From Paenibacillus macerans (GTDB lineage: Bacteria > Bacillota > Bacilli > Paenibacillales > Paenibacillaceae): a stretch of 32,000 nt of DNA. Location of the stretch: NCBI RefSeq assembly GCF_023715465.1, contig NZ_JAMBOE010000002.1, positions 49,104 through 81,103 of the forward strand, written 5' to 3'. The notes beneath the pieces are model-generated. The model saw only the letters and a program-made list of their open reading frames with translations, searched no databases and was not told the origin of the DNA. Below, piece after piece: positions 4,130 through 32,000 of the stretch; positions within the stretch are counted from its first letter, which is position 1, and each line of letters begins with the position of its first letter. Made by a program: the position numbers and the translations under genes.

Positions 4130-4218
4130 AAGAGGGGGAAATCCTCACGAGATGTAAAAGTGCAGGCGGTTTTTGTCGAAACTCCTCTAAACTGGTGGTT
4201 CAGATGTAAAAGCGGCTA
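4130..4218. repeat. Intergenic repeat units (GAGATGTA / AAAGTGCAG / CTCTAAAyTGGTG type), left of the IS
   Basis: gagatgtaaaagtgcagg...ctctaaactggtggttcagatgtaaaagcgg shares its motifs with 5619-5750 on the other side of the IS. Confidence 0.45.
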
Positions 4219-4288
4219 GGCCCCCTAATTCCGGAGTCTACACCGTCAAAATAATGTGTGTCGTACGATTGCTTACTTTTTCAACAAA

Positions 4289-5185
4289 TTACAGCGTTCT
4301 ATGGAATTTGGCTTGTTCTTCTTCCTTCAGTTGCTTGACCCATTCACTGAACACAGTGGGCGCTTTGCGTTTCAAGCTCCCATGCATTCTGCGGTTGTTG
4401 TAGAAGTCCATATACCAGTCAATAGCCGCATACGCGTCTTCCATGGTCTCAAACGATTCTTTGGTGAGTAGGTCGCGTTCCATCGAGCTGTGGAACGACT
4501 CGATGTACGCATTCATGTTTGGTGTCTTTGGCGGGATCCGTTCATGGAGCACCTCCCAGCTTTCACAAGTATCGCCAAACAGCACACTCAGGAATTGAGG
4601 GCCGTTGTCCGTGCGGATCACGGGCATGGTCTCTCCGGGTTGCAATCGGCTCTCGATGGCCCGCCCCAAGGCCTGACAGATATGCGTCGCTTCGCAAACA
4701 GAGCCTCTGTAATAGGCGACGATGACGCGATCGAACACATCGATGATGCTAAAGACGAAAAAGAAACGATCGCGGCCGGGAACATACCCGTACTTGATGT
4801 CCGCCTGCCATAATTGGTTCGGGCCGGTGACCAGACGGTTTCTAGCCAGTCTTCGTGGATGCTTGGACTTGGGCTTTCTCCGCTTCTGAAGAATGCCTAG
4901 CTCTTTACAGAGGCGGTAGGCCTTTGACTTTCCTAGAACCAGGTCGTATTTGTCGCGTAAACACTGAGCCAACAGCTTGTAGCCGTAGATGTGCTCTTCG
5001 CCTTCTAGGAGCTCAAGTAGCCACTCTTTGATCTGCTCGTCGCTGACTTTACGACCTTGCAGCGTCAAGGAGTACCCTGGACAAGGGCGGCCTCTTCCCG
5101 GGCTGTTAGAAGTCTCTGTAGACCGTTTCGTGCGTTTGAGGCGCTCGTAGTAGGTGGATTCTGCCAGACCTAATATACGCAGCAC
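4289..5185 (-). CDS. IS3-family transposase OrfB (DDE integrase core), normally made as an OrfAB fusion by a -1 frameshift
   Basis: 298-aa ORF with an rve-type catalytic core. After a -1 slip at 5263-5257 the frame stays open upstream and reads KKEEPCLSEKFEIADRFIKQGNTAALVLRILGLAESTYY. Confidence 0.9.
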   Translation of the reverse strand: MLRILGLAESTYYERLKRTKRSTETSNSPGRGRPCPGYSLTLQGRKVSDEQIKEWLLELLEGEEHIYGYKLLAQCLRDKYDLVLGKSKAYRLCKELGILQKRRKPKSKHPRRLARNRLVTGPNQLWQADIKYGYVPGRDRFFFVFSIIDVFDRVIVAYYRGSVCEATHICQALGRAIESRLQPGETMPVIRTDNGPQFLSVLFGDTCESWEVLHERIPPKTPNMNAYIESFHSSMERDLLTKESFETMEDAYAAIDWYMDFYNNRRMHGSLKRKAPTVFSEWVKQLKEEEQAKFHRTL

Positions 5186-5223
5186 AAGAGCTGCGGTGTT
5201 CCCCTGCTTAATAAAGCGGTCGG

Positions 5224-5550
5224 CTATTTCAAATTTTTCAGATAAGCAGGGTTCTTCTTTTTTAGGAGTTCTCGCAGGATCTCGATTTCGAGTTCCTTTT
5301 CACCCAGCACCTTCATCGCCTTTTCGTATTTCACTTCCACGTCCTGAAGCCGCTTGAGCTCTTGAAGATGATGGTCCGCCGGTGGTAGTTCGTGGATATC
5401 CACTTCATCCCGATACGTTCGAATCCAGTTGCGAATCGTTTCCGGGTGGAGGTTATACTTCCGGGCCAGCACCCCCACCTTGATCCCCGACATAGCTTCA
5501 CGCACTACTTCGATACGCACTTCCTCGTATAGCTTACTTGATCGTCGCAT
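5224..5550 (-). CDS. IS3-family transposase OrfA (HTH)
   Basis: 108 aa. It has an N-terminal HTH (GIKVGVLARKYNLHPETIRNWI) and a leucine-zipper-like C-terminus. The RBS AAGGGAGGA is upstream. Confidence 0.9.
   Translation of the reverse strand: MRRSSKLYEEVRIEVVREAMSGIKVGVLARKYNLHPETIRNWIRTYRDEVDIHELPPADHHLQELKRLQDVEVKYEKAMKVLGEKELEIEILRELLKKKNPAYLKNLK
5257..5263 (-). other. Programmed -1 ribosomal frameshift heptamer A AAA AAG
   Basis: orfA reads CTA AAA AAG on the minus strand. This is the canonical IS3-family slippery site, lying 30 nt before the orfA stop. Confidence 0.8.
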
Positions 5551-5618
5551 ACTGTTCGTCCTCCCTTAGAAATACAATAATATATTGTAGGGCAGGACTC
5601 CAATTCAATTAGGGGGCC

Positions 5619-5777: not shown

Positions 5778-6413
5778 TTACGTATCGCTTTGTACGGTAG
5801 ATAGTGAAACAAGAACCGGTCCGGCGAAATCGGAAGCGTCCTCGCCTTTCGGATTATGAAGGCGGAACAGAAAAGCGTTCCCTAGTTCTGAAGTCCACAC
5901 CATATAATCGCTTATGCCTTCCGCTCCGGAAGCTTGAAGGTAAAGTTCCGCGGATCCAAGCGGATGTTCAACCAACTCGCCGCTATAATCGGACACCTCT
6001 CCGACTTGACTCAACTCTTCCTTGCCCGCAGCTTCAAGCTGGGCCAAATCATAATCGGAAGGCAGCGGTTCAATATCCACATAATAATCCGGATTGCTGC
6101 TTAACGATAAGCGGCCCGCAGCTGCATCAAATGCAAATTTCTCAAAGACATACAAGGAAAATCCTTCCCCCTGATGCAGGACCGCCTCCAGTGACTGATT
6201 TCCCTCAGCAGTCAATAAATCAAAGCTCTCGGTTTCTGGACGAGTTGCTTCTACGACTGGCTCCTGCTCGGACGAAGGAGGTGAAGCCGATTCAGCTTCC
6301 GGGGCTGCTGCTTCCGGGGGAGCAGAAGGCTCTGTTTCTCCTGTACAAGCGGAAAGTATGAAAACCAAGACGACAATCGGAATGCTTATCCAAAAGGGAT
6401 ACCGATTCTTCAA
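5778..6413 (-). CDS. Lipoprotein of unknown function (acidic, Pro/Glu/Ala-rich linker)
   Basis: 211 aa, with a TTG start at 6413 and the RBS GAAAGGAG. MKNRYPFWISIPIVVLVFILSACTG carries a lipobox (LSAC). I recognised no domain. Confidence 0.7.
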   Translation of the reverse strand: MKNRYPFWISIPIVVLVFILSACTGETEPSAPPEAAAPEAESASPPSSEQEPVVEATRPETESFDLLTAEGNQSLEAVLHQGEGFSLYVFEKFAFDAAAGRLSLSSNPDYYVDIEPLPSDYDLAQLEAAGKEELSQVGEVSDYSGELVEHPLGSAELYLQASGAEGISDYMVWTSELGNAFLFRLHNPKGEDASDFAGPVLVSLSTVQSDT

Positions 6414-9208: not shown

Positions 9209-9640
9209 TTATATGTGCTCATTAATTTTGATCAATAATTTCTTTAAGACTTGCTTTTCTTCGTCGGTAAGGACCTGAATGATCTCATCCTCCACCTTGC
9301 GGAATGAATCATTAAAGTCATCAATCAGTTCAATCGCTTTTGGCAACACATATATATTTTTTTGGCGTTCGTTAGTGGCTGGAATTTTGCGCTCTATGTA
9401 CCCTTTTTGCTCCAAAACTTGCAATATGCTTGTAATGCTGGCTCCCCGCAGATGAAACCGATCTGCAAGGTTCTTTTGAATAATGTGTTTGTCTTGATTT
9501 TTGTAAATATACTCGATTATTTTTCCTTGTTGAGCGTTCAAACCCAGCTCTTTTATGCTTTCGTCCGCTCTTTTCTTTAACTTAAGGCCAATAATCTGAA
9601 ACAAATCAAGATAAGGCGTATCTTTTCGAGATTGCATCAT
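9209..9640 (-). CDS. MarR-family transcriptional regulator
   Basis: Winged HTH (QQGKIIEYIYKNQDKHIIQKNLADRFHLRGASITSILQVLEQKGYIER). I prefer the start at ATG 9640/9637, downstream of the RBS AGGGGGGA. Confidence 0.85.
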   Translation of the reverse strand: MMQSRKDTPYLDLFQIIGLKLKKRADESIKELGLNAQQGKIIEYIYKNQDKHIIQKNLADRFHLRGASITSILQVLEQKGYIERKIPATNERQKNIYVLPKAIELIDDFNDSFRKVEDEIIQVLTDEEKQVLKKLLIKINEHI

Positions 9641-9683
9641 TATCCCCCCTGCGATTGTTAGAACGCTAACTATAAACAATTAA

Positions 9684-9712
9684 ACTATACAGTGACACCA
9701 TAGGCCTGTCAA
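9684..9712 (-). promoter_or_regulatory. sigmaA promoter of the marR gene
   Basis: TTGACA (9712-9707), a 17-nt spacer, then TATAGT (9689-9684). The dyad GTTAG-AACG-CTAAC (9657-9670) lies just downstream in the leader. Confidence 0.6.
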
Positions 9713-9727
9713 TTAAACGTTAAATTA

Positions 9728-9756
9728 TTGACTGTTAGATTTCTAATAGTTATAAT
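9728..9756 (+). promoter_or_regulatory. sigmaA promoter of the amidohydrolase gene, with a MarR-type dyad in the spacer
   Basis: TTGACT (9728-9733), a 17-nt spacer, then TATAAT (9751-9756). The spacer contains GTTAGAtttCTAA (9734-9746). Confidence 0.65.
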
Positions 9757-9763
9757 TCTAAAC

Positions 9764-9784
9764 ATCATACATCATACATCATAC
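9764..9784 (+). repeat. Perfect 3 x 7-bp tandem repeat (ATCATAC)3 in the amidohydrolase 5' UTR
   Basis: The sequence atcatacatcatacatcatac lies directly before the RBS AGGAGG (9785-9790). Confidence 0.9.
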
Positions 9785-9797
9785 AGGAGGAATTCAA

Positions 9798-11108
9798 ATG
9801 GAAAATCCAGCTCAAATTGCCGCGTTAGACCAAGTCACGGTGATTAAGAATGTACGCATTTTTGATGGGGAAAAAATGATTGCGTCCAGACATGTTGTCA
9901 TTAAAGGAGGGTCCATTATTTCCGTGGGAGGAGACCAGCCGGGCGATGCAATCATCGTTGATGGGGAAAATGCGACATTAATGCCTGGTCTGATCGATGC
10001 CCATGTTCACACTTCCATTGCCGGATTGCGGGATGCCCTAAAATTCGGCGTAACGACAGAACTTGAAATGAATGGCGATTTTACGGCAAGAGGACGCGAG
10101 ATTCAACTGAAAAACGTGGGTGATGTCGCGGAGGTTCTTTCTGCCGGCACGGCGATTACCGCTCCGGGAGGCCATCCGGATGAGTTGCTGCCGGATGGGG
10201 ACGAAATTCCCGAATTCGTAATGAAGGAATTGGAAAAATTATCGGAGGAAGACCGGGAAGCAATGCTGGCTGCATATGCGCATGATCACGAGGAAATCCC
10301 CCAAGTAACGACAGCGGAAGAGGCCATCAAACATGTCCATACCCAAGTGGAGAATGGTGCCGACTATATCAAGATTATGATCGAAGAAGGTACTGTCATA
10401 GGGGCCCCAGGTCTTCCGGTTTTGAGCGAAGACATTCTGCGCGCGGCCGTCCAAGAGGCGCATAAATTTGATAAAATTGTGCTTGCTCATGTTTTGACGG
10501 CTCGATCTTCGCAAACGGCTATCGATCTGGGAGTCGACGGATTGGCCCATTTGTTTATCGATAGACCAGGCTTCACACCGGCATTGGTGAATTCTATTGC
10601 AGAATCAGGCGCGTTCGTTACGCCTTGCTTGGTATTGAATTCATCTATTCTAGGACAGCCGGCACGGGAATTGGCGAACGACCCTCGGGTGTATTCCAAA
10701 TTAAGTCCGGATTGGATCGATATTCTGAACTCCAGCTTTAATACGTATCCTCAAGGCGATATGGAGAACAGCTTTAAAAATGTCATGGATCTTCACAGAG
10801 CCGGTGTGGATATTCTGGTAGGGACAGATGTATCCCCCGTGCCTGTTCCGAACCTTGGCGGTCTTGCCCATGGAGCCAGCGTTCACCATGAGCTGCAACT
10901 GCTGGTCAAGGCAGGCTTCACTCCAATTGAAGCGCTTCAAGCGGCTACCTCGAAACCGGCGCGACGATTCGGTCTTCACGATCGTGGCCGCATTATCGAA
11001 GGTGCACGCGCTGACTTTATTCTCTTAAACGGTGATCCGACAACCAATATCTCGGATTCCTTGTCAATCAAATCCGTGTGGTTTAATGGTGTGCTTCAAG
11101 GCGAATGA
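9798..11108 (+). CDS. Amidohydrolase-superfamily metallo-hydrolase (COG1228-like); substrate unknown
   Basis: 436 aa. It has the HxH metal motif GLIDAHVHT, later conserved His/Asp (LAHV, GLAHLF, GTDV) and the C-terminal ADFILLNGDP motif typical of the family. Confidence 0.8.
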   Translation: MENPAQIAALDQVTVIKNVRIFDGEKMIASRHVVIKGGSIISVGGDQPGDAIIVDGENATLMPGLIDAHVHTSIAGLRDALKFGVTTELEMNGDFTARGREIQLKNVGDVAEVLSAGTAITAPGGHPDELLPDGDEIPEFVMKELEKLSEEDREAMLAAYAHDHEEIPQVTTAEEAIKHVHTQVENGADYIKIMIEEGTVIGAPGLPVLSEDILRAAVQEAHKFDKIVLAHVLTARSSQTAIDLGVDGLAHLFIDRPGFTPALVNSIAESGAFVTPCLVLNSSILGQPARELANDPRVYSKLSPDWIDILNSSFNTYPQGDMENSFKNVMDLHRAGVDILVGTDVSPVPVPNLGGLAHGASVHHELQLLVKAGFTPIEALQAATSKPARRFGLHDRGRIIEGARADFILLNGDPTTNISDSLSIKSVWFNGVLQGE

Positions 11109-11733
11109 TATTAGATTTCCTGGCCAGTGATATAGGAAAATCAAAATAGGTATCGGGATATGGCTCATTTTTCAATGTATAATGCCACCATTCATAATCA
11201 TAAGCGCTAAAACCGCTGGACTCCATGATAGAACGCAATAACCGGCGGTTCTTAGTTTCAGCTTTGGTGATTCCCTTAGCATCGTGATGGGAGATGACAT
11301 CCATCAGATCAAAATCACCGCCCATCGGAACAAGAACGCCGGTATCTAACCGATAAAGAGTCAGATCAATTGCACTACCGCGGCTATGCCCCGATTGAGT
11401 CGCTACGTAACCCTTCCGAATCATTTCGGAACGGTTGATATTAGGATAATGTTTTGATTTTGTACGCCCATCTTCAGGCTCTTCAGACCACTTTAGAAAG
11501 CGATCCACAGCGCGTTGCGGACGATAACCGTCCCAGAGAAGCAAGCCATACCCAAGGACAGCTGCCTGCTCCTGTGCCACATGCAGCGCGGCAGCCAATT
11601 CATGGGTGCCTACAATACGATTGACTTCATAACCATCGACCGGTTTTCCGGTGAAATTGTCCCATGTGGCATACTTAGCATCCCAACGAATTCCGGGGAG
11701 AACTTCATCAAGGAACACAAATCCTTTTTCCAT
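11083..11733 (-). CDS. vanX: D-Ala-D-Ala dipeptidase VanX
   Basis: WDAKYATWDNFTG, LLLWDGYRPQRAV, SGHSRGSAIDLTL and YEWWHY match VanX Zn-binding and catalytic motifs. It carries about 13 extra C-terminal residues relative to the Tn1546 VanX as I recall it. Confidence 0.93.
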   Translation of the reverse strand: MEKGFVFLDEVLPGIRWDAKYATWDNFTGKPVDGYEVNRIVGTHELAAALHVAQEQAAVLGYGLLLWDGYRPQRAVDRFLKWSEEPEDGRTKSKHYPNINRSEMIRKGYVATQSGHSRGSAIDLTLYRLDTGVLVPMGGDFDLMDVISHHDAKGITKAETKNRRLLRSIMESSGFSAYDYEWWHYTLKNEPYPDTYFDFPISLARKSNIIRLEAHH

Positions 11734-11737
11734 ATTC

Positions 11738-12769
11738 TTATCCCTCCATCGCTAATGCAACCACGCGTTCAATCACATCGGCAAGCGTTAAACCGGCGGC
11801 GGCCATCATTCTTGGATAGCGGCTGTATGAGGTACAACCAGGCATCGTGTTGACTTCATTGAGCACGACTTGCCCGTCTTCCTGTAGAAACATATCCACA
11901 CGAGCAAGCCCACTGCAGCCCAAAGCCCGATAAACCAGCTTCGCTGTTTCTTGTACCCGTTTCTTATCCTGATCTGAAAGATCGGCCGGAACCTTGATCG
12001 TAGAGTTTTCGGAACCGTTCTCCGGATTTTTCTCCTGATGGATGCGGAAGAAGCCATGGGACAACTGGATTTGATCCACTTCACCAACAAACAAGTCGTT
12101 ACCGGTTCCAAGCACTGCGCAGCCTACCTCGCTGCCGGAAATCATTTGCTCAATTAGAATTTTTGTGTCATATTGGCTTGCGCTTGCGATGGCTTCCGGC
12201 AATTCGTCCATATGGCATACCTTTCTGACACCAAAAGACGATCCGGAACGGGCTGGTTTAACAAAGACAGGATAAACAAGTTGCTCCGCGTCTGGCATGT
12301 CACCTTTGTTGAATGCCAAAAAATCAGGCGTAGCGATTCCTGCGTTTCTTACGATCACATAAGTCAAAGACTTGTCCATGCACAGCGCTGAGCTCTGGAT
12401 ATCGCAGCCTGCATAGGGAATGCCGGAAAGCTCCAACAGTCCCTGCATGGCGCCATCCTCTCCCATTTTTCCATGCAAAACAGGAAATACGATATCCAGG
12501 CGGATGATCTTGTATTCTCCCTGCTCCAACACAATTAATCCGTGGACATTTCTGTCCGGGGACAAAATGGCGGGAAGGCAATTTCCGCTTTCCCAATTCG
12601 CCTCAGGATAATCGCAGAGCTTCCATTCACCGGCTTTGGTGATCCCGATGTAAAGCGGATCAAATTTGTCTGGGTCAAGGTTTCTGGCGATCTCCTGTGC
12701 GGATTTTATGGAGACATCATGTTCTTCTGAGCAGCCTCCGAATAAAACGGCAATCTTGAGCTTGTTCAT
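11738..12769 (-). CDS. vanA: D-alanine--D-lactate ligase, VanA/VanF type
   Basis: 343 aa and collinear with VanA throughout (LFGGCSEEHDVS, GCDIQSSA-CMDKSLTY, YPVFVKPARSGSSFGV, GEVDQI...FRIHQE, LNEVNT-PG-TSYSRYPRMMAAAG). The omega-loop FRIHQE histidine is the D-Lac-specificity determinant. Confidence 0.93.
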   Translation of the reverse strand: MNKLKIAVLFGGCSEEHDVSIKSAQEIARNLDPDKFDPLYIGITKAGEWKLCDYPEANWESGNCLPAILSPDRNVHGLIVLEQGEYKIIRLDIVFPVLHGKMGEDGAMQGLLELSGIPYAGCDIQSSALCMDKSLTYVIVRNAGIATPDFLAFNKGDMPDAEQLVYPVFVKPARSGSSFGVRKVCHMDELPEAIASASQYDTKILIEQMISGSEVGCAVLGTGNDLFVGEVDQIQLSHGFFRIHQEKNPENGSENSTIKVPADLSDQDKKRVQETAKLVYRALGCSGLARVDMFLQEDGQVVLNEVNTMPGCTSYSRYPRMMAAAGLTLADVIERVVALAMEG

Positions 12770-13732
12770 CTATCTTGTTCCCCTTTCGAATTCTAAGCAA
12801 TTTTGAATCGTGTTCTCTACGATATCTTGCAGCGCGTGATCTGTGTAAAAAGCGGTATGCGGCGTAATCATCACATTCGGCAATTTTTGCAGCCGCGGCA
12901 GAAATTGATTATTGACCGACTTGTTTGTACGGTCGTGATAGAATATACCTTCTTCGTCTTCAATGACGTCCAATGCGGCGCCCCCCAGCCTCCCATCTTC
13001 CAAAGCCCAGATCAGCGCCTCTGTGTCAATAAGAGATCCGCGTGCGGTGTTAATCACAAAGGCCCCCTGTTTCATGCTTTTGATTCGCTTCCGGTCAAGG
13101 ATATGGTAAGTATCGGCGTTGAGCGGCATATGAAGCGTCAGGATATCACTTTGCCGCAGCAGTTCGTCCAGAGTAACATATTCGGCCTTAGCTTGCGGAT
13201 ACAAGTTATAAGCCAGTATGCGGCACCCGAAGCCGTTTAGCCGATCAATCACCGCCTGCCCGATGCGGCCTGTCCCCAATACCCCCACCGTCATGTCGCG
13301 CAGTTCCCGTCCCGGTACAGCACAAAGCTTGTAATCATGGACATCCGCTCTGCATAAAACCGACTTTGCATTTCGTATAGACATAAGTATCAACATCAAA
13401 GTATAATCTGCCACGCTAGCCGGCGAATAAGCTACATTACCAATAGTAATGCCAAGCTTTTCAGCCGCTTCCAAGTCAATGTGGTTGCAGCCTATGCTTC
13501 TTGTGGATATATAAGCGACGCCGTTTTCCTTGAGGGCGCGAAGAGTGGAAGGCCCTACTTTCGTTTTATGATTAACGCTTATACAGCAATTGCCTGATGC
13601 CAACGCGGCGTTTTCGGCTGATAACGCTGACTCAATGATCGTCGGTGCAACACCATAATGCGGTGAATACCTCCTGAACAGATCCGCTTCGCCCTTTTCA
13701 CATCCGTAAATCGTGATCCCTGTTTTCTCCAT
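12770..13732 (-). CDS. vanH: D-specific alpha-keto acid (pyruvate to D-lactate) dehydrogenase VanH
   Basis: 320 aa and collinear with VanH (ITIYGCE..EAD, YISTRSIGCNHID, VAYSP.SVADYT.MLIL, GTGRIG NAD-binding motif, MITPHTAFYT). Its stop abuts the ligase start. Confidence 0.93.
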   Translation of the reverse strand: MEKTGITIYGCEKGEADLFRRYSPHYGVAPTIIESALSAENAALASGNCCISVNHKTKVGPSTLRALKENGVAYISTRSIGCNHIDLEAAEKLGITIGNVAYSPASVADYTLMLILMSIRNAKSVLCRADVHDYKLCAVPGRELRDMTVGVLGTGRIGQAVIDRLNGFGCRILAYNLYPQAKAEYVTLDELLRQSDILTLHMPLNADTYHILDRKRIKSMKQGAFVINTARGSLIDTEALIWALEDGRLGGAALDVIEDEEGIFYHDRTNKSVNNQFLPRLQKLPNVMITPHTAFYTDHALQDIVENTIQNCLEFERGTR

Positions 13733-13753
13733 GGTGTCAACCTTTCTTTTGCA

Positions 13754-13806
13754 AAATAAAAACCTGTCAGCTTTGATAAACCCATGTTATCAATAGCGGA
13801 CAGGCC
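13754..13806 (-). terminator. Terminator-like hairpin plus U-run between vanS and vanH, lying in the predicted vanH leader
   Basis: The minus-strand RNA reads CCUGUC-c-GC-ua-UUGAUAA-cauGGGu-UUAUCAA-a-GC-u-GACAGG followed by UUUUUAUUUU. That is about 15 bp in total. Confidence 0.55.
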
Positions 13807-13808
13807 GT

Positions 13809-13848
13809 ATTTTAATATTGAGTTGTTAAATTCCTAAGAAAATCCTAA
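13809..13848 (-). promoter_or_regulatory. Putative vanH promoter with a direct-repeat VanR (OmpR-family) site
   Basis: On the minus strand, two copies of TTAGGA are spaced 11 bp apart (13848-13843 and 13837-13832). The proximal copy acts as the -35 element, followed by a 17-nt spacer and TAAAAT (13814-13809). Confidence 0.55.
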
Positions 13849-13866
13849 CATCAGATTGAGGTTTTC

Positions 13867-14991
13867 CTAATGCGTAACAGGTAAAGAGACCGTAAAGGTA
13901 ACTGTGTTATCTTTACTTTGGGCCACAATGGTTCCACTATGCAGGGTGACGATTTCTTTGGCGATGGACAACCCTAACCCGGAACCGCCAGTGCCCGCCG
14001 TGCGTGCTTCATCCAAGCGATAAAACTTCTCGAAAATAGCGTCCAGCTTGTCCGGTGGAATGGTATTGCCTTGATTTTGAAAAACGATCTTTATATCACC
14101 CTCTATTTCCTCTGCCGAAATAATGATTTCCGTGTTTGGGTAGCTGTATGCGGCCGCGTTTTTCAGAATATTATTGAATACCCGCGCCAGCTTCACCGGG
14201 TCGCCGTACACGGTCAAATTTTCGTCGGCATGAAGTACGGTGGCATTTCCTTTTTCGGAGAGGAGCGGATAAAACTCGTCCGTCATTTGCACAAGCATGT
14301 AGTAAAGGTCTATCGTTTCCTTTTCCAGCTTGATTTCCTGCAAGTTGTACCGGGTGATTTCAAAAAATTCGTTGATTTGTTCCTCCAAGCGATAGGCTTT
14401 GTCGAGGGTAATGTGAGTATATTTAGCTCTCTGCTCCACGGGCATATCGGGCGCCTCGCCCAATAAACTCAAGTAACCAATTACAGATGTAAGCGGAGTC
14501 CTGATGTCGTGGGCCAAATAAACAACCAAATCATTTTTGCGTTGCTCCGCTTCCTGAGCAGCCTTCTTCTGCCTTTTCAACTTGTCCTTTATGGTATTCA
14601 GACGATTTTCCATGAATTCCATCTCCGGGGAGAGGGATATTTTATCCTCTGAATCTTCCACAAGCCGATCCATGCCGGAGCTGATTTCATCAAAATGTTT
14701 TGTGAACCAGGAGATAGTGAACCAAGACAGGATGACCAGAAAAACCAGGGTCAAAAGAAGCAGAATGAGATCTAAGTTATTGCGAAATACATAATGATAG
14801 ATGAGCAGTGCATCGGAGTTGTTCAGATTAAAAGTATAAATCAGAAATTGAACGATGCGATCTCCAATCTGTCCCCGCAAAATATCCCGCATTAAAAGGA
14901 CGGTAACAGCAGCAATGATCGTAATCAGCAGCATTTGTAAAAAAACTTTTCGCTTCAGCATTGCATAATTGCCCTTCTTATTGCTTTTCAA
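13867..14991 (-). CDS. vanS: Sensor histidine kinase VanS
   Basis: 374 aa with two N-terminal TM segments. H-box YLAHDIRTPLTS, N box NILKNAAAYS, G boxes. The N-terminal NKKGNYAMLKRK parallels VanS-A NKKNDYSKLERK, which supports the start at 14991 (a 14-nt overlap with vanR). Confidence 0.9.
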   Translation of the reverse strand: MKSNKKGNYAMLKRKVFLQMLLITIIAAVTVLLMRDILRGQIGDRIVQFLIYTFNLNNSDALLIYHYVFRNNLDLILLLLTLVFLVILSWFTISWFTKHFDEISSGMDRLVEDSEDKISLSPEMEFMENRLNTIKDKLKRQKKAAQEAEQRKNDLVVYLAHDIRTPLTSVIGYLSLLGEAPDMPVEQRAKYTHITLDKAYRLEEQINEFFEITRYNLQEIKLEKETIDLYYMLVQMTDEFYPLLSEKGNATVLHADENLTVYGDPVKLARVFNNILKNAAAYSYPNTEIIISAEEIEGDIKIVFQNQGNTIPPDKLDAIFEKFYRLDEARTAGTGGSGLGLSIAKEIVTLHSGTIVAQSKDNTVTFTVSLPVTH

Positions 14992-15682
14992 TTTTATAGC
15001 CGACCCCCCATACGGTTTTGATATACTTTGGTTTTTCTACAGTGTCGCCCATTTTTTCACGCAAGTGACGGATATGGACGGTGATCGTATTGTTGCTTTT
15101 GCTGTAATACTCGTCCTTCCAAATCTCAGAAAAAAGTTCCTCGGCACTCACCACTCTGCCCTTTCGCTCCAGTAAAATGCGGAGTATGGAAAACTCGGTG
15201 GGTGTCAGTTCAAGAGGTTGTTCATTCAGTAGGCACTCATGCGTGTTTACATCCATAACCAAACCTGAATGGACGATTACAGGCTCATTGACAGGCGCAG
15301 ACTGCGGCGTGTTGTATTTTTTATAGCGCCGCAACTGTGCTTTTACACGCGCTACCATCTCAAGCGGACGGAACGGTTTTGTGATATAGTCGTCGGCACC
15401 CAAGGTTAGCCCCGTAATTTTATCCGTCTCTTCATCTTTGGCCGTCAGCATAATGATGGGATAGGTATGCTGTTCCCGTATTTTCTGGCAAAGCATAAAG
15501 CCATTGATGTCCGGCAGCATAATGTCCAGAATGGCCAGGTCAAGCTCCGTCGTTTCAATGCAGGCAAGAGCTTCCTTTGCAGAGTAAAACTTGAACACTT
15601 CATAATTTTCATTGCGCAGATACACTTCTATTAAATCCGCTATTTCATGTTCATCGTCAACAACGAGAACTTTAGTACACAT
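14978..15682 (-). CDS. vanR: Response regulator VanR (OmpR/PhoB family)
   Basis: VLVVDDEHEIADL, DLAILDIMLP, ITGLTLGADDYITKPF and TVWGVGYKIE are near-collinear with VanR. I prefer the ATG at 15682, with the RBS AAAGGAG 8 nt upstream, over the ORF-track start at 15715. Confidence 0.92.
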   Translation of the reverse strand: MCTKVLVVDDEHEIADLIEVYLRNENYEVFKFYSAKEALACIETTELDLAILDIMLPDINGFMLCQKIREQHTYPIIMLTAKDEETDKITGLTLGADDYITKPFRPLEMVARVKAQLRRYKKYNTPQSAPVNEPVIVHSGLVMDVNTHECLLNEQPLELTPTEFSILRILLERKGRVVSAEELFSEIWKDEYYSKSNNTITVHIRHLREKMGDTVEKPKYIKTVWGVGYKIEKQ

Positions 15683-15769
15683 GATTTTCAGCTCCTTTCC
15701 GGCAGAACTCAACATCCTCCTATTTTACTAAATTCGGCAACTAAATTTATGACTTCCAGCTTGAGAAAT

Positions 15770-15786
15770 TATTAAGATTTTCATAA
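15770..15786 (-). promoter_or_regulatory. Possible VanR autoregulatory site upstream of vanR
   Basis: On the minus strand, TTATGAaaatcTTAATAattt aligns with the vanH-site TTAGGAttttcTTAGGAattt and keeps the same 11-bp phasing. It begins 8 nt after the MFS stop codon. Confidence 0.35.
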
Positions 15787-15793
15787 GGTCCAT

Positions 15794-17023
15794 TCATTTG
15801 AACTTACCCTTATACAAAACGGGTATAGCCGCTGCTATAAGGATCATCCCCATAAAAGCGGGTGCGGCATGTCCAAGCGATACATAGATTTGACCTCCAA
15901 TGATAGGCCCAATTATTCTTGCTAAAGCCTGAATCGATTGGCTGCCTCCTTGAATCCTTCCTTGCTCACTGGGATCGGCAGACTTGGAGAGCATCCCATT
16001 AAATGAAGGCCCGAAGATCGAATCGCCAAAACCAAATATAAACATTCCCGCGATAATAAGCGGATAGAATGAGAACAAAGCGGATAGCGCAATAAGACCG
16101 TAACCTATAATCTCCGAAACCATTCCAAGAATTGCTATTTGTGCATCACTGAGTTTTTTCAGGAGCTTTGGCATGATGAAACCTTGGGAAATGATGTCCT
16201 GGACGCCAATAATAGAGAACATAAGTCCGATTAGTGCAGGCTTCCAGCTAAAAGTATCCATTGTAAATTGTGAAAAAACCGCCTGTAAAGATCCATTGGG
16301 TATCCAAAGTAAGAACGCTGAGACAAGCAGCCTTTTTAAGTTTTTCATGGAAAGTACGTTTACAAGCTGGGTGAATGGATTCAGTCGTACAAAGGTGATC
16401 TTTTGCAGTCTATTATTCTTGTCAAGGCTCTCAGGCATAAAAAAGAATCCATAAACAACATTTATTAAAGTGATGATTGCTCCGAAATACATGGGTGCAG
16501 AATAATCAAACCTGGCAAGTAATCCGCCTAGAGTCGGGCCAATGACGGTGCCTACACCTACAACCGCACTCATCCATCCAAAGTATTTGGTTCTCTGTTC
16601 TGGTGGAATGATGTCGGCAAAATATGCGAAGATCGTGCTTATGCTCCCACCTGTTATACCTTCTATTATGCGTCCGGCAAATAGTACCCATAGGGCCCCT
16701 CCTATGCCAAAAACGAAATACCCGATTGCGGAACCCAATAGGCATATTAAGAGTAATGGACGACGGCCATATCTGTCGCTCAAAGCTCCAAGTCCGGGGG
16801 CGGCAAAAAACACACAGACTGCATAAACAGAGGTCAGCAGCGTAACAACTATAGCTTGATCTCCCGGATGGCTTATATATGGCTGCACTAAGAATGGGAC
16901 GACAGGTGTTATGATACTGAAGCCTATTCCGCAAAGAAACACAGACATAAGACCAAATATTAAAGCCTTTTTATCAACGGCTTGTACCGTGTTCTGTTCA
17001 TGGTGTGATCTAAATTTAAACAC
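15794..17023 (-). CDS. MFS drug/H+ antiporter (12-TM DHA1, TetA-like)
   Basis: 409 aa with a GTG start and the RBS GAGAGGAG. MFS motif A is GALSDRYGRRPLLL, and motif-C-like GPTLGG is present. Confidence 0.85.
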   Translation of the reverse strand: MFKFRSHHEQNTVQAVDKKALIFGLMSVFLCGIGFSIITPVVPFLVQPYISHPGDQAIVVTLLTSVYAVCVFFAAPGLGALSDRYGRRPLLLICLLGSAIGYFVFGIGGALWVLFAGRIIEGITGGSISTIFAYFADIIPPEQRTKYFGWMSAVVGVGTVIGPTLGGLLARFDYSAPMYFGAIITLINVVYGFFFMPESLDKNNRLQKITFVRLNPFTQLVNVLSMKNLKRLLVSAFLLWIPNGSLQAVFSQFTMDTFSWKPALIGLMFSIIGVQDIISQGFIMPKLLKKLSDAQIAILGMVSEIIGYGLIALSALFSFYPLIIAGMFIFGFGDSIFGPSFNGMLSKSADPSEQGRIQGGSQSIQALARIIGPIIGGQIYVSLGHAAPAFMGMILIAAAIPVLYKGKFK

Positions 17024-17049
17024 TTAAATTCTCCTCTCAAAAAACGCCG

Positions 17050-17108
17050 TTTTGCTTCCTTGGAAACAAAATCATCGTATCATCATTTTGCTTCCTTGGC
17101 AACAAAAT
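17050..17108 (-). promoter_or_regulatory. MFS promoter with two copies of a 23-bp palindromic operator
   Basis: TTTTGCTTCCTTGG(A/C)AACAAAAT occurs at 17050-17072 and 17086-17108, 36 bp apart. Each copy is an imperfect dyad (TTTTGyTTCC-nn-GGAArCAAAA). The minus-strand promoter TTGCCA (17102-17097), a 17-nt spacer and TACGAT (17079-17074) lie between and over the two copies. Confidence 0.65.
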
Positions 17109-17117
17109 AAAAGCAAT

Positions 17118-17152
17118 AAAAAAGCAGCCCGCTCTCAATAGAGCCCGGCTGC
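17118..17152 (-). terminator. Rho-independent terminator after the second marR gene
   Basis: The minus-strand RNA reads GCAGCCGGGCUCU-auug-AGAGCGGGCUGC followed by UUUUUUAUU. Confidence 0.75.
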
Positions 17153-17179
17153 CTATGGTTTGGTTTTCATGATTCAAAT

Positions 17180-17653
17180 TTATTCCAACTTCATATCTAG
17201 CCCCTGTTTCTTTATTTCTGCATCCAAATGCCTGCTATACTTTTCCATGAAGCGAAGCATACCGTCAAATTGTTCCTCGGTTACCTGCGCAAATACGGCT
17301 TTATCCCGCTCTTGAAACTCTTTGTGCAGTTCCTCATGGATTTTATAAATGACTTTCCCTTGCTCAGTAAGCCTAAAATAGATTTCTTTCTTGTTTTCCG
17401 GCTTCTGATAGCTTTCGATAAGGCCTTTTTTTATGAGCTTCTTAGTTATTTTACTTATGGCGCCGCTAGTCATATAAAAGGCCTCCGCAAGTTTTGTCAC
17501 GTTGGAATCAGCATTTCTTTCAATGTATTCGATGCAATGGACTTCAGAAGACTTATATCCCTTAAGACTGTCTTCCATCTTAAACTTATTAAGGTAAACC
17601 ATCTTGTTGAATAAGTCCCTGAAACCCATTATGACCTGTTCTTCTTTGTTCAT
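17180..17653 (-). CDS. MarR-family transcriptional regulator, likely repressor of the adjacent MFS pump
   Basis: Winged HTH (SEVHCIEYIERNADSNVTKLAEAFYMTSGAISKITKKLIKKGLIE). I prefer the ATG at 17653, with the RBS GGGAGGA upstream. Confidence 0.85.
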   Translation of the reverse strand: MNKEEQVIMGFRDLFNKMVYLNKFKMEDSLKGYKSSEVHCIEYIERNADSNVTKLAEAFYMTSGAISKITKKLIKKGLIESYQKPENKKEIYFRLTEQGKVIYKIHEELHKEFQERDKAVFAQVTEEQFDGMLRFMEKYSRHLDAEIKKQGLDMKLE

Positions 17654-17722
17654 GGCCTGTCCTCCCAGCCGTTGGTGCATTAACAATATAAAATTAGAAT
17701 GTTCGTCTCCATGCCTCTACCT

Positions 17723-17762
17723 TACCAAAAACAAGAACAGAGTGGTAGTCCTGCTACCACTC
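17723..17762 (-). terminator. Rho-independent terminator after the MetRS gene
   Basis: The minus-strand RNA reads GAGUGGUAG-cagga-CUACCACUC followed by UGUUCUUGUUUUUGG. Confidence 0.7.
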
Positions 17763-17772
17763 CGAAAGATTT

Positions 17773-19413
17773 TCAGCGATTTAACTGACTGAGAAGCCGT
17801 TGTTCTTCTTCCTCAATCCTTTCGGGAGAGATCCGTTCAAATAAGTGGCTTACGTTTCGAATCATTTTCCCTGCCGGCACCACAACGGGTTCCCAATTGG
17901 CTTCGTCCAGTTCGAGAAACTGGCGAATCCTTTTACAAGCCGCCGGGATGAACGGATTCAACAGATTCCCGAGGTTGGCGATAATTTGTGTGCAGGTGAA
18001 CAGTGTTTGGGCGCATTGATCCGGGTTTTCCCGATAAGTAACCCAAGGCTTTTCCTCGTCAAAGAATTTGTTAGCCTTGCGAATATTTTCGAAAATCAGA
18101 TCCAGCGCATTCTTGAAACGTGCTGCTTCGATCAACTCTCCACAACGCGTGTAGAGATCAATTAAAGTTGTGGACCACTTCGCATCCGGGGCTCCTACCG
18201 GCACCTGAGAATTGAAGGATTTTACAATAAAAGCTAAGGTCCGGTTCACGAAGTTCCCAAATGTCCCTAGAAGTTCACCATTATGACTGTGTATGAACTC
18301 CCTCCATGAAAAGTCTGTATCCCGCCTTTCCGGCCCGTTTGTGATCAGGAAATACCGGATAGAGTCGGATGAATACCGCTCCAAAATATCCGGGACCCAT
18401 ACAGCCCAGTTGCGGCTAGTAGAGAACTTTTTCCCTTCGAGTGTCATGTACTCGCTGGACACAATCCGGTCTGGGCGATGCAGATCGCCGGCCCCCGATA
18501 AAATGGCGGGCCAAATCAACGTATGAAAAGGAATATTATCCTTGCCGTGGACGTAATAGGCAACTGTATTGCCCCCTTTTACCCAATACGGCCTCCAATC
18601 CGTTCCATGCTCCTCCGCCCACCTTAAGCTGGCCGACAGGTAACCGCTCACAGCTTCGATCCATACGTATATTTTCTTTCCCTCGAAACCTTCGACCGGT
18701 ACGTCGACTCCCCAATCCAAGTCCCTGGTCACGGCGCGATCCTGAAGCCCTTCGCGCAGGTATCTCTCCGTCAATTGAAGCGCATTTTCCCTCCAGCCTA
18801 CGGCGTTCTTCAAGTAATTTTCCAGCTCCGTCTGGAACGCAGACAATCGCAGATAATAATGCTCCGTCGGACGATCCACAGGCGTACTGCCGCAAAGTTT
18901 ACATCTTCTGTCCGACAAGTCTGAAGGGTCCAGCAATGTAGAGCAGAAGTCGCACTGGTCTCCCCGTGCCTTTTCTCCGCAAATAGGACATGTCCCCTCG
19001 ACATATCGGTCAGGAAGAAAACGACCGTCAACTTCGCAGTAAGTTTGCTGCACATTCCTCTTGTCTAGACACCCGTTTTCCAAGAGACGAAGGAATAATT
19101 CTTGAACGGTTTGGTGATGGTGTTTCTCATCCGTCCGAGTGTACAAGTCAAAAGAAAAATCCAACATCTTAAAACATTGCACAAATTCATGGTGGTACCG
19201 ATCGGCAATTTCGCTCGGACTCACTCCCACCTGTGACGCTTGAACCGCTACGGGTGTCCCATGACAGTCGCTCCCTGACACATAAAGCACAGAATCTCCA
19301 TTAGCCCGGTGGTAGCGTGCGAGCACATCCCCTGGCAGTACACTCGCTAGCCTTCCCAAGTGAAGGGAACCATTGGCGTATGGCCAAGCTCCACCGATAA
19401 AAATGTTTCTCAC
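17773..19413 (-). CDS. metG: Methionyl-tRNA synthetase, short MetRS1-type form with zinc knuckles and no C-terminal tRNA-binding domain; probable auxiliary copy
   Basis: 546 aa with a GTG start and the RBS AAAGGAGG. It is collinear with E. coli MetRS (PYANGS-HLG, FLPDR-V-GTCP-C, YVW-DA, GKD---FH---WPA). Cys knuckles are CPICG..CDFC and CKLCG. The signature motifs read HLGR and KFSTS. Confidence 0.85.
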   Translation of the reverse strand: MRNIFIGGAWPYANGSLHLGRLASVLPGDVLARYHRANGDSVLYVSGSDCHGTPVAVQASQVGVSPSEIADRYHHEFVQCFKMLDFSFDLYTRTDEKHHHQTVQELFLRLLENGCLDKRNVQQTYCEVDGRFLPDRYVEGTCPICGEKARGDQCDFCSTLLDPSDLSDRRCKLCGSTPVDRPTEHYYLRLSAFQTELENYLKNAVGWRENALQLTERYLREGLQDRAVTRDLDWGVDVPVEGFEGKKIYVWIEAVSGYLSASLRWAEEHGTDWRPYWVKGGNTVAYYVHGKDNIPFHTLIWPAILSGAGDLHRPDRIVSSEYMTLEGKKFSTSRNWAVWVPDILERYSSDSIRYFLITNGPERRDTDFSWREFIHSHNGELLGTFGNFVNRTLAFIVKSFNSQVPVGAPDAKWSTTLIDLYTRCGELIEAARFKNALDLIFENIRKANKFFDEEKPWVTYRENPDQCAQTLFTCTQIIANLGNLLNPFIPAACKRIRQFLELDEANWEPVVVPAGKMIRNVSHLFERISPERIEEEEQRLLSQLNR

Positions 19414-19435
19414 GGTAATTTACCTCCTTTTTATA

Positions 19436-19649
19436 GAAAAACAACAAAAAGACCCCCATCCCTAAAGGGACGAGAGTCTTAGCTCACGTGGTACCACCCA
19501 GTTTCATCAATGTCTTACGACATTCACCTCTTCAAGTACGCCGCAGAACGCGGTTATACTCTAGCACGATAACGGGTGCGGGTTCCCGGCGCAACCTACT
19601 TCCGGATTGAGGTTTCGATGCGCGGCTCAGAGACCATATTCGCGGGAAG
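19436..19649 (-). promoter_or_regulatory. T-box riboswitch leader (3' half unambiguous; Stem I and specifier unresolved)
   Basis: Read on the minus strand: the T-box sequence AAACUGGGUGGUACCACG (19504-19487); a Stem III-like AAUGUC-GUAA-GACAUU (19524-19509); the F-box CCGUUA (19575-19570); AGUAG (19600-19596); and the terminator GACUCUCGUCCCU-uu-AGGGAUGGGGGUC plus U-run (19478-19436). It lies directly upstream of an aaRS gene. Confidence 0.85.
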
Positions 19650-19988
19650 TTACTTCATGATCAGGACGCCGTTCAAGTCGACTAGGCCCCACTGATAAGC
19701 TTTCATAATCGCTTCATACCGGTTTCGCGCAAATTCGTTCTCACCATTCTGCTGTTGATAAATGCGATTATACTCCTCTTCTTCAGACGGTGTCTGACGC
19801 GCAAAGTTTGGATTGATTACACGTTGATCATCAAGTGCTGACATAAACTGATCAAAGGTCATGGAACGTGAAGGTTGAGGCTGCGAGTTCCCCTTCAATT
19901 CATTTTGAAAACGGTTGACTAAAGTCAGCTTGGTGTAGGCCGCAAACTCTGGCGTAAACATTCCGTTCGCAGCAATTGGACTTGTCAT
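19650..19988 (-). CDS. Hypothetical protein (112 aa); no domain recognised
   Basis: A strong RBS, AAAGGAGGTGA, lies 8 nt before the ATG. A good promoter is upstream. The sequence is not low-complexity. Its stop codon lies inside or at the edge of the T-box leader. Confidence 0.6.
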   Translation of the reverse strand: MTSPIAANGMFTPEFAAYTKLTLVNRFQNELKGNSQPQPSRSMTFDQFMSALDDQRVINPNFARQTPSEEEEYNRIYQQQNGENEFARNRYEAIMKAYQWGLVDLNGVLIMK

Positions 19989-24011: not shown

Positions 24012-26648
<2,637 letters not shown>

Positions 26649-26697: not shown

Positions 26698-26712
26698 TAC
26701 ACTTAAAGTGTA
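26698..26712. promoter_or_regulatory. Perfect 7-1-7 palindrome in the rph leader
   Basis: TACACTT-A-AAGTGTA lies about 40-55 nt downstream of the predicted rph TSS and 62 nt upstream of the ATG. Confidence 0.4.
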
Positions 26713-26757
26713 AGATGAGATAATTGCGATCATACCCATTGACGCAGTCGTGATCTG

Positions 26758-26786
26758 ATTATATCATCGTGTCTGTTCATATGCAA
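26758..26786 (-). promoter_or_regulatory. sigmaA promoter of rph
   Basis: TTGCAT (26786-26781), a 17-nt spacer, then TATAAT (26763-26758). This implies a 5' UTR of about 115 nt. Confidence 0.6.
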
Positions 26787-26791
26787 TATTA

Positions 26792-26820
26792 AAGAACTTG
26801 GCAAAATTGCCCAGGTTCTT
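26792..26820. terminator. Hairpin downstream of the nitroreductase gene; its U-run is better on the plus strand
   Basis: AAGAACTTGGCAA..TTGCCCAGGTTCTT forms about 13 bp with one bulge. On the plus strand it is followed by CTTTGATTTT, and on the minus strand by TAATATT. Confidence 0.5.
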
Positions 26821-26852
26821 CTTTGATTTTCCACTAATTTTACGATAAATGA

Positions 26853-28909: not shown

Positions 28910-28950
28910 TGCATACGGGCGGATCGAAGGCGATTTGTGACTAGCCATCA

Positions 28951-31395: not shown

Positions 31396-31504
31396 GTCTG
31401 GATAAAAAAAAGAGCATTGACAAATCAGAGGTCACCGGTGTAAAGTTAAATTAGGAATAGAAATTAAAATATCGGTTTTATCATGATTTTTCAGTGCGCT
31501 AATG

Positions 31505-31533
31505 ATTATAACATAGCGCTTTTTTGCGTTCAA
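31505..31533 (-). promoter_or_regulatory. Strong sigmaA promoter (extended -10) upstream of helD
   Basis: TTGAAC (31533-31528), a 17-nt spacer, then TATAAT (31510-31505), preceded by TGt. The inverted repeat GCGCTA-N12-TAGCGC (31496-31519) brackets the -10 element. Confidence 0.65.
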
Positions 31534-31560
31534 TTATTTTTTTTGTGTCGTACCAATAGG

Positions 31561-31604
31561 CAAAAAGCTTTCCATAACCCCTTTCGGACGATTATAGAAA
31601 GCTT
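31561..31604 (-). terminator. Rho-independent terminator after the AraC-family gene
   Basis: The minus-strand RNA reads AAGCUUUCUAUAA..CC-GAAA-GG..UUAUGGAAAGCUU followed by UUUUGCC. Confidence 0.7.
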
Positions 31605-31663
31605 ATTCTGCTTTGCGGCGTCTATCGCGTTCACTTTAAAATTTTTCAGGAAATTGTATACTA

Positions 31664-32000
31664 TTATTTCCTTCTATAATGCAATGGCGCATGGCCCGTA
31701 ACCGCCTTGAACACTCGGCCGAAATGCGTCACGCTTCCGAAGCCCACCTTCCTCGCGATCAAGTTCACCTTCATGGAAGAGCCTTCAAGCAGCTTCTTGG
31801 CTTCTTTGATCCGTACGCTGTTCACGTACTCTACGAACGCAAAGCCCGTCGCCTCTTTGAAGGATCGGCTCAAATAATACGGACTAATATAAAACTTATC
31901 CGCCAGCAAATGAAGCGACAGTTCCTCCATGTAATGCTCGTTGATATAGCGGACGATCTCCGATATTCGTTCGTGCATCGGACTTGGCGATGCCGGCAGC
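31664..32000 (-). CDS. AraC/XylS-family transcriptional regulator. Only the C-terminal HTH domain is present; the gene continues past the window end.
   Basis: The HTH_18 region is LLADKFYISPYYLSRSFKEATGFAFVEYVNSVRIKEAKKLL...IARKVGFGSVTHFGRVFK. The frame stays open from 31978 to the window end. Confidence 0.85.
   Translation of the reverse strand, partial: LPASPSPMHERISEIVRYINEHYMEELSLHLLADKFYISPYYLSRSFKEATGFAFVEYVNSVRIKEAKKLLEGSSMKVNLIARKVGFGSVTHFGRVFKAVTGHAPLHYRRK

Follow-up and report, generated by a model that had tools for sequence, protein, structure and literature searches.

A stretch of 32,000 nucleotides from the Paenibacillus macerans genome (hereafter the window; C60:49104-81103 of a 7.29-Mb genome) was found to carry five van genes which very probably make up an intact chromosomal D-alanine-D-lactate (D-Ala-D-Lac) operon under VanRS control, belonging to the published 'clade I' lineage. 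From the comparison of related sequences, we consider that this operon would represent a five-gene reduction of the arrangement vanRS-vanW-vanHAX-gntR-murG, that it was acquired horizontally by an ancestor of the P. macerans group, and that it subsequently descended vertically at one plastic locus of low guanine-cytosine (GC) content. The cluster is real but ordinary, and it is already in the literature; what is added here concerns the limits of the conserved block, a quantified transfer, repeated deletions of vanW, the missing gntR-murG pair and the alignment of the promoters with those of Tn1546.

Five intact van genes

Gene calls were taken from an open reading frame (ORF) listing, protein identities were assigned with NCBIfam and Pfam models at their curated cut-offs, and individual residues were checked by pairwise alignment with the Tn1546 proteins. 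The five intact genes lie on the minus strand between 11083 and 15715, in the vanRSHAX order of the Tn1546 core, which bears out the complete and collinear cluster described in an earlier note on this DNA; the spacings given there (a vanR/vanS overlap of 14 nt, a vanH-ligase gap of 0 nt and a ligase-vanX gap of 4 nt) were reproduced exactly by the ORF listing.

14978..15682, minus strand: vanR, OmpR/PhoB-type response regulator (234 aa from the ATG at 15682; ORF open to 15715)
13867..14991, minus strand: vanS, sensor histidine kinase (374 aa, TTG start; HisKA and HATPase_c domains)
12770..13732, minus strand: vanH, D-lactate dehydrogenase (320 aa; 2-Hacid_dh domains)
11738..12769, minus strand: D-alanine--(R)-lactate ligase, unnamed Paenibacillus 'clade I' allele (343 aa)
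11083..11733, minus strand: vanX, D-Ala-D-Ala dipeptidase (216 aa, i.e. a 202-aa core and a strain-specific 14-aa tail)

The response regulator passes NF033117 (VanR_ACDEGLN; 389 bits versus a cut-off of 350), has VanR-A as its best VanR model, retains the phospho-acceptor Asp and is 75.5% identical to Tn1546 VanR, as against only 33% to VanR-B. Its true start is probably the ATG at 15682, since a ribosome-binding site (RBS; AAGGAG) is present at 15692-15697, the VanR-A model aligns with the ORF at residues 12-244 versus 1-231, and vanR of P. oralis begins at the equivalent position. The sensor kinase passes NF033091 marginally (400.3 bits versus 400), is 58.4% identical to VanS-A, keeps the phospho-His and shares the TTG start of Tn1546 vanS. 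VanH (59.3% identical to VanH-A; RBS GAAAGG at 13741-13746) falls just short of the VanH_gen model (529.6 bits versus 540), and VanX (70.6% identical to its Tn1546 counterpart) passes NF033115 (384 bits versus 320) with R71, H116, D123, E181 and H184 (5/5) retained, among them the Zn ligands (H116, D123 and H184) and the catalytic E181. All five genes are under purifying selection, with ratios of nonsynonymous to synonymous divergence (dN/dS) of 0.07-0.52 overall (vanR 0.07-0.31; vanS 0.17-0.34; vanH 0.20-0.44; ligase 0.11-0.18). Taken as a whole, the family models, domains, catalytic residues and dN/dS values support five genes that would be both intact and working.

A D-Ala-D-Lac ligase of the Paenibacillus clade

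The ligase passes the D_ala_D_lac equivalog model NF000206 (620.7 bits versus a cut-off of 550; D-Ala-D-Ser model VanG 407.7, Ddl models at most 358), and its His244 in FRIHQE occupies a position identical to that in Tn1546 VanA. In VanA this omega-loop histidine (FRIHQE) is linked to D-Lac selectivity. The equivalog model, the FRIHQE motif and the phylogeny presented below thus agree with the previous assignment to the D-Ala-D-Lac (non-Ddl) enzymes; two housekeeping Ddl genes are located elsewhere in the genome. Ligases passing the same model were recovered from 14 of the 401 genomes sampled from the family, spread across several clades.

The naming of the allele is a different matter, as the ligase stays under the cut-off of every named-allele model (VanI 603.7 bits, cut-off 700; VanA-Sc 560.8; VanB 553.7; VanA 548.6, cut-off 775; VanF 547.3, cut-off 750). 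Its identity is 70.6% to VanI (a Desulfitobacterium protein passing the VanI model), 67.8% to VanB, 65.9% to VanA, 65.0% to VanA-Pa, 64.7% to VanF (a protein of genome G065 scoring 825 bits on the VanF model) and 63.7% to VanM, and its best solved-structure matches (3se7 and 1e4e) are both VanA. The closest proteins are those of P. macerans and P. oralis (97% identical), followed by those of P. elgii, P. mesophilus, P. hemerocallicola, P. oleatilyticus, P. sedimenti, P. flagellatus and others (87-95%). A maximum-likelihood tree was built from 52 ligases, with the two Ddl proteins of the genome as its root; here the window ligase falls into a Paenibacillus-only clade of ten sequences (support 92/91), together with P. 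oralis and a further genome of the genus (G298) in a subclade of three (support 99/98). This clade is placed outside the VanI-plus-actinomycete group and outside the large VanA/F/M/B group, and constraining it with the VanA/F/M group lowers the log-likelihood by 136 units and is rejected (approximately unbiased, AU, test, p = 6.2e-8). The VanA-/VanF-like ligases of Paenibacillaceae (genomes G141, G149, G157 and G065, and the VanA-Pa reference) form a separate clade.

The notion that the window carries an allele of VanA/VanF type, chromosomal and either closely related or ancestral to the Tn1546 genes of enterococci, could draw on the shared vanRSHAX order, the identical FRIHQE, the resemblance of VanR to VanR-A (in identity as well as in best model) and the promoters that align with those of Tn1546. 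We hold it to be extremely improbable, because the ligase is nearer to VanB and VanI than to VanA and VanF, remains about 200 bits short of both the VanA and the VanF cut-offs, branches outside the VanA/F/M/B group with the constrained grouping rejected, and leaves the genuine VanA-/VanF-like ligases of Paenibacillaceae in another clade. The label 'VanA/VanF-type', which the earlier note had attached to the ligase, thus has to be given up for that protein (it fails both models); as VanR and VanS resemble those of Tn1546 and the ligase branches elsewhere, the label fits the regulatory architecture (VanR 75.5%, VanS 58.4% identity, and both promoters) and not the ligase allele. For annotation purposes we advise the designation of an unnamed D-Ala-D-Lac ligase of the Paenibacillus clade, and not VanA, VanF or VanI.

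Limits, spread and mobility of the van block

By blastn comparison of the window with 10 related loci, a compact block of homology was delimited:

11116..15791, minus strand: conserved van block, from the vanR promoter to the last conserved vanX codons (4.68 kb; blastn versus 10 loci)

In 10/10 loci the homology extends from 15786-15791 to 11116-11129 (DNA identity 85-96%), with flanks that are unrelated beyond the closest kin of the window. On the left the block ends at the first of two VanR-box repeats phased at 11 bp, and on the right in the last vanX codons. As the ends match the promoter and vanX, and as a gntR-murG continuation exists elsewhere, we interpret them as the limit of selected function (left) and as a truncation point (right), and not as transposon termini. 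The homology of the relatives stops at ~11116-11129, and the 14-aa tail of VanX is accordingly encoded by the junction with the neighbouring amidohydrolase module.

The block is present in P. mesophilus, P. hemerocallicola, P. sp. P25, P. oleatilyticus, P. sedimenti and P. flagellatus at 85-94% DNA identity (ligase 90-95%), in comparison to 61-65% protein and 66-70% DNA identity for the housekeeping Ddl of the window and these six species; it is also found in P. sp. YN15 (ligase 87% identical), from which no true Ddl ortholog was recovered. The synonymous divergence of the van genes is ~0.08-0.21 for most pairs of the window with block-sharing species, and the GC content of the block is 45-50% versus 54-61% at the housekeeping loci in most hosts (46.3% for the block of the window, 46.8% for the whole window and 52.0% for its genome). 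Since the block is 85-96% identical between unrelated flanks while ddl is only 66-70% identical, we consider that it spread horizontally; as judged from these sequences, it has clearly moved between Paenibacillus lineages, despite being devoid of mobile-element ends. Within the P. macerans group the identity of the cassette (95.5-96.1%) is similar to, or somewhat higher than, that of ddl (91-95%), and this similarity is in keeping with vertical descent after a single acquisition.

Searches of the window with NCBIfam and Pfam models recovered no VanY, VanZ, VanW, resolvase or transposase adjoining the cluster, and no inverted repeats, direct repeats or target-site duplications were found at the block ends, so that the previous description (no vanY or vanZ and no mobile-element ends) stands; genes with VanY, VanZ and VanW domains occur in the genome at distant sites only. 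Likewise, the nearest insertion sequence (IS) is indeed some 5.5 kb from vanX and unrelated to the cluster: it is an IS3-family element at ~4217-5618 (orfA 5224-5550, orfB 4289-5185; terminal inverted repeats GGCCCCCTAATT...GGAGTC), whose absence from the same site in P. oralis and G298 indicates a recent insertion. Two candidates for a hidden recombinase (the hypothetical gene hyp211, 5778-6413, and the antisense ORF) were rejected, having no Pfam match even at E = 0.1.

Whether the cluster could at present be carried by a transposon, an integrative and conjugative element or an integron-like cassette, with ends or a recombinase that escaped notice, deserves consideration, given the sharp and identical ends between differing flanks in about ten genomes, the clear past transfer of the block, the differing gene modules inserted a few bases from each end in close relatives, the low GC content across the whole window and the mention, for P. 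macerans and P. oralis, of a tyrosine recombinase conserved 'downstream' (PMC9689679). We regard present-day carriage of this kind as highly improbable: the window contains no tyrosine recombinase (the nearest, at C60:20573, is ~39 kb from vanX) and no tRNA genes that could serve as integration sites, there are neither inverted repeats or target duplications nor any recombinase or transposase inside or beside the block, and the IS3 element is strain-specific. Moreover, the left end is a VanR box and the right end the vanX C-terminus, the conserved DNA extends ~2 kb further (gntR-murG) in other species, and no close plasmid copy was found among 72,556 plasmids surveyed by tblastn and blastn (best DNA match ~69%, to Tn1546 and a Brevibacillus megaplasmid). 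We thus retain the reading of a chromosomal operon that was transferred in the past and inherited vertically thereafter.

Repeated loss of vanW and absence of gntR-murG

An intact vanW (PF04294) is located between vanS and vanH in four members of the clade (loci L003, L034, L007 and L005), differing deletion remnants of it are present in four others (L002, L006, L035 and L004), and none is left in the window or in P. oralis. Counted against the intact copy of L003, the retained pieces of the vanS-vanH interval are as follows:

P. mesophilus: positions 1-153 and 861-956
P. flagellatus: positions 1-163 and 905-965
P. oleatilyticus: positions 1-122 and two short 3' remnants
P. sp. P25: positions 1-122
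Window and P. oralis: positions 1-127, joined 8 bp before the vanH ATG

As the clade members retain different pieces of the interval, vanW must have disappeared in several independent deletions. The vanH gene of the window now relies on a leader and RBS region that formerly stood before vanW. Furthermore, in six other Paenibacillus species (L035:11657-13419; also L002, L003, L004, L006 and L034) the conserved DNA continues for ~2 kb past vanX, comprising first the gene of a GntR/FCD regulator, whose translation is coupled to that of vanX, and then a second murG (the pair being 91-97% conserved); this gntR-murG pair is absent from the genome of the window, in which the best MurG match is 29% identical.

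A separate arrangement was observed in a metagenome-assembled genome (Bacillota OH_CBB_199, L005:5296-9033), where vanRS is followed by vanY, a gene for a 615-aa beta-propeller (PQQ-like) protein, vanW and vanHAX. As its VanS is only 53% identical to that of the window, this locus appears to join the vanHAX of the clade to a different regulatory pair.

Promoters, leader hairpin and expected resistance

The following regulatory features were identified upstream of vanR and vanH:

15766..15787, minus strand: putative VanR boxes of the vanR promoter (direct repeats CTTATGAAAAT / CTTAATAATTT, 11-bp period)
13865-13870, 13843-13848 and 13832-13837, minus strand: three TTAGGA boxes 5' of vanH, putative sites for phosphorylated VanR (spacing 22 and 11 bp)
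13809..13814, minus strand: putative -10 element TAAAAT (17 nt past the proximal TTAGGA box; read from the sequence)
13763..13806, minus strand: terminator-like hairpin and U-run in the predicted vanH leader (minimum free energy -20.2 kcal/mol, z = -4.0)

The repeats CTTATGAAAAT / CTTAATAATTT align with CTTAAGAAATT / CTTAGTCATTT upstream of Tn1546 vanR and fit the published 12-bp repeat pattern of VanR type (PMC4405338), in line with the presumed binding of VanR at this promoter. The spacer between vanS and vanH contains a clade-conserved block (TTTTCTTAGGAA(A/T)TTAACAA...AATATTAAAA.ACGGC) that aligns almost base for base with the corresponding spacer of Tn1546, in which the position aligned to the -10 element presumed for the vanH promoter at 13809..13814 reads TAAAAA. 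Scans with sigma-70 and terminator consensus sequences returned no more hits than shuffled sequence, and such scans did not pick up activator-dependent van promoters. The leader hairpin precedes vanH (ancestrally vanW), and Tn1546 keeps its position though not its sequence, the hairpin aligned there being stronger (-30 kcal/mol, z = -6.6); it could serve to terminate vanS, to stabilise a 5' end or to attenuate transcription.

We regard the cluster as most likely being a working, VanRS-inducible resistance operon, as its genes and promoters suggest. On the basis of what is known of the family, VanS would sense the glycopeptide and phosphorylate VanR, which would then bind the 11-bp-phased repeats before vanR and vanH and turn on vanH, the ligase gene and vanX. 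VanH would convert pyruvate to D-lactate, the ligase would form D-Ala-D-Lac, and VanX would break down the D-Ala-D-Ala supplied by the two housekeeping Ddl enzymes, with the outcome that precursors ending in D-Lac would bind vancomycin poorly. Without a VanY to trim residual precursors ending in D-Ala, one would expect resistance to be moderate; this is consistent with a Spanish survey in which 6/6 P. macerans isolates were vancomycin-resistant, with minimum inhibitory concentrations (MIC) of 6-64 mg/L (PMC5484988). A vancomycin MIC of at least 16 was also reported for one clinical P. macerans isolate, which was not genotyped for the cluster (PMC6544421).

An operon that is cryptic or poorly expressed and confers no resistance, either because the leader hairpin terminates transcription or because the loss of vanW and gntR-murG disables it, strikes us as highly improbable, even though a hairpin with a U-run does stand between the predicted promoter and vanH, the accessory genes of the relatives are missing, and VanH and VanS score at or just under their cut-offs. 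Purifying selection acts on the five genes and every catalytic residue is kept; the functional Tn1546 has a stronger hairpin at the aligned position, and its vanA operon is likewise without vanW; and the P. macerans isolates of the survey were uniformly resistant (6/6).

Several points weigh against the reading of an intact, horizontally acquired and inducible operon. VanH is 10 bits short of the NCBI generic cut-off, with VanS exactly on its own, and the terminator-like hairpin might limit expression. The root of the ligase tree is uncertain, being placed on long Ddl branches, and the position of the Paenibacillus clade was found unstable in another study as well (PMC11273654). In addition, the argument for transfer is based on one housekeeping gene, the flanks and the GC content, and the isolates of the Spanish survey were not genotyped for the cluster.

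As a tentative extension, which we put forward as a speculative and rather doubtful idea, the block may be a self-contained 'promoter-to-stop' cassette that spreads across distant Paenibacillus without a linked mobility gene and was streamlined en route (vanW deleted independently at least four times, gntR-murG lost in the P. macerans group), with the leader hairpin perhaps acting as a conserved attenuator that adds a layer of control to VanRS.

The locus and its neighbours

In P. oralis and G298 the block is found at the same locus, in a region that is collinear at 92-96%, and for G298 the collinearity spans the entire window (92-95%). In comparison to G298, the window has as extras the IS3 element, a MarR and amidohydrolase pair (9210-11122), the genes for a major facilitator superfamily (MFS) pump and MarR with most of a methionyl-tRNA synthetase (MetRS) gene (15792-19287), a TetR gene with a 112-aa ORF, and a HelD-like helicase gene. 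The genes flanking the cluster include MarR with a Tet-like MFS pump, a second MetRS, MarR with an amidohydrolase, and PadR, DUF1048 and ATP-binding cassette (ABC) transporter genes. As this low-GC patchwork (TetR, two MarR, PadR, MFS and ABC) varies among the three closest genomes, we consider the window to be a plastic accessory region.

A comparison with van-negative relatives, proposed in the earlier note, gave a partial empty site and no clean one: in a more distant genome of the genus (G048) the PadR-ABC block and the rifampin-phosphotransferase-like gene stand ~6 kb apart without van genes; other relatives lose synteny past PadR.

The divergent MarR-amidohydrolase module (9209-11108) occurs in this genome only, and its 3' end overlaps vanX by 26 nt; at the vanX junction the sequence is a different one in G298 (58 bp) and in P. 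oralis (~416 bp). On the other side of the block, the MarR and MFS efflux pump genes (15794-17686, minus strand) are absent from P. oralis and G298, and the stop codon of the pump gene and the left end of the block are 2 nt apart; the best model of the pump is Tet(42), at 271 bits well short of the cut-off of 850. Just upstream of the van block, a second MetRS paralog is encoded (546 aa; 17773-19413, minus strand; leader 19414-19650), the other MetRS of the genome being a 677-aa frame at C49:604001-605101. The paralog is dispensable and the relatives are losing it, since only deletion remnants, different in each, survive in P. oralis and G298.

Further from the cluster, an 874-aa protein with PPDK_N and PEP-utilizer domains (24012-26636) has a rifampin-phosphotransferase-like architecture. 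Between its gene and a nitroreductase gene an Rfam match to the Bacillus small RNA ncr1015 is located (26708-26826, plus strand; 93.5 bits versus a gathering score of 60). An 814-aa UvrD/HelD-like helicase is encoded at 28951-31395 (minus strand), and its gene region (28933-31666) is absent from G298.

Comparison with the published lineage and known van systems

Soil Paenibacillus are regarded as a reservoir of, and a stepping-stone for, the enterococcal van genes. The earlier note saw in the cluster a chromosomal version of the vanA/vanF-like operons of soil Paenibacillus, a view of which the chromosomal vanRSHAX part is confirmed and the kinship is not, as the classical VanA/VanF relatives form a different clade. 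One lineage of these genes, as the window confirms, is fixed in the P. macerans group, which acts as an opportunist on occasion and is reported to be vancomycin-resistant throughout. This lineage differs from both VanA and VanF, and its block moves from one Paenibacillus lineage to another as a compact piece of DNA whose promoters resemble those of Tn1546. These findings assist in reading vancomycin MICs in Paenibacillus infections and leave the knowledge of the resistance mechanism unchanged.

The lineage itself has been published: vanRSHAX was described in five P. macerans strains and in P. oralis KCOM 3021, within a 'clade I' that unites these carriers with other Paenibacillus, Thermobacillus and Aminipila and that includes vanRSWHAX variants, with murG downstream at some loci (PMC9689679), and the P. 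macerans/P. elgii/P. hemerocallicola clade corresponds to the 'Paenibacillus clade' of PMC11273654. The window belongs to 'clade I' by its ligase (87-97% identical to those of the P. macerans, P. oralis, P. elgii, P. hemerocallicola, P. mesophilus and P. flagellatus group), its gene order and its VanRS-A-like regulators.

The vanRSHAX clusters of P. oralis and P. macerans have the same genes, order and tree clade as that of the window (proteins 91-97% identical to P. oralis; locus shared with P. oralis and G298), and the differences from P. oralis and G298 (MarR-MFS, an intact second MetRS, MarR-amidohydrolase fused to the vanX 3' end, and IS3) are at strain level only. The loci of P. hemerocallicola, P. 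sedimenti, P. sp. YN15, P. mesophilus and P. oleatilyticus SM69 share the cassette (85-94% DNA identity), the promoters and the left end; unlike these vanRSWHAX(-gntR-murG) loci, the window is without vanW (intact or a remnant in theirs) and without gntR-murG after vanX. With the Tn1546 vanA operon the cluster has in common the vanRSHAX order, regulators of VanRS-A type, aligned VanR boxes and promoter cores, the hairpin and a TTG-start vanS overlapping vanR, but it is chromosomal and devoid of vanY, vanZ, a Tn3-type transposase, a resolvase and inverted repeats. The vanF operon of P. popilliae and the VanA-Pt/VanA-Pa operons (P. thiaminolyticus, P. apiarius and Brevibacillus laterosporus) are likewise D-Ala-D-Lac clusters on chromosomes or megaplasmids under VanRS control, yet they carry vanY and/or vanZ and/or vanW, and their ligases belong to another clade. 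Finally, vanI of Desulfitobacterium provides the best named NCBIfam allele model (603.7 bits) and the top named-allele identity (70.6%), whereas the window ligase remains under the cut-off of 700 (704.5 for the Desulfitobacterium protein) and in another tree clade, and the Desulfitobacterium locus has no adjacent vanH.

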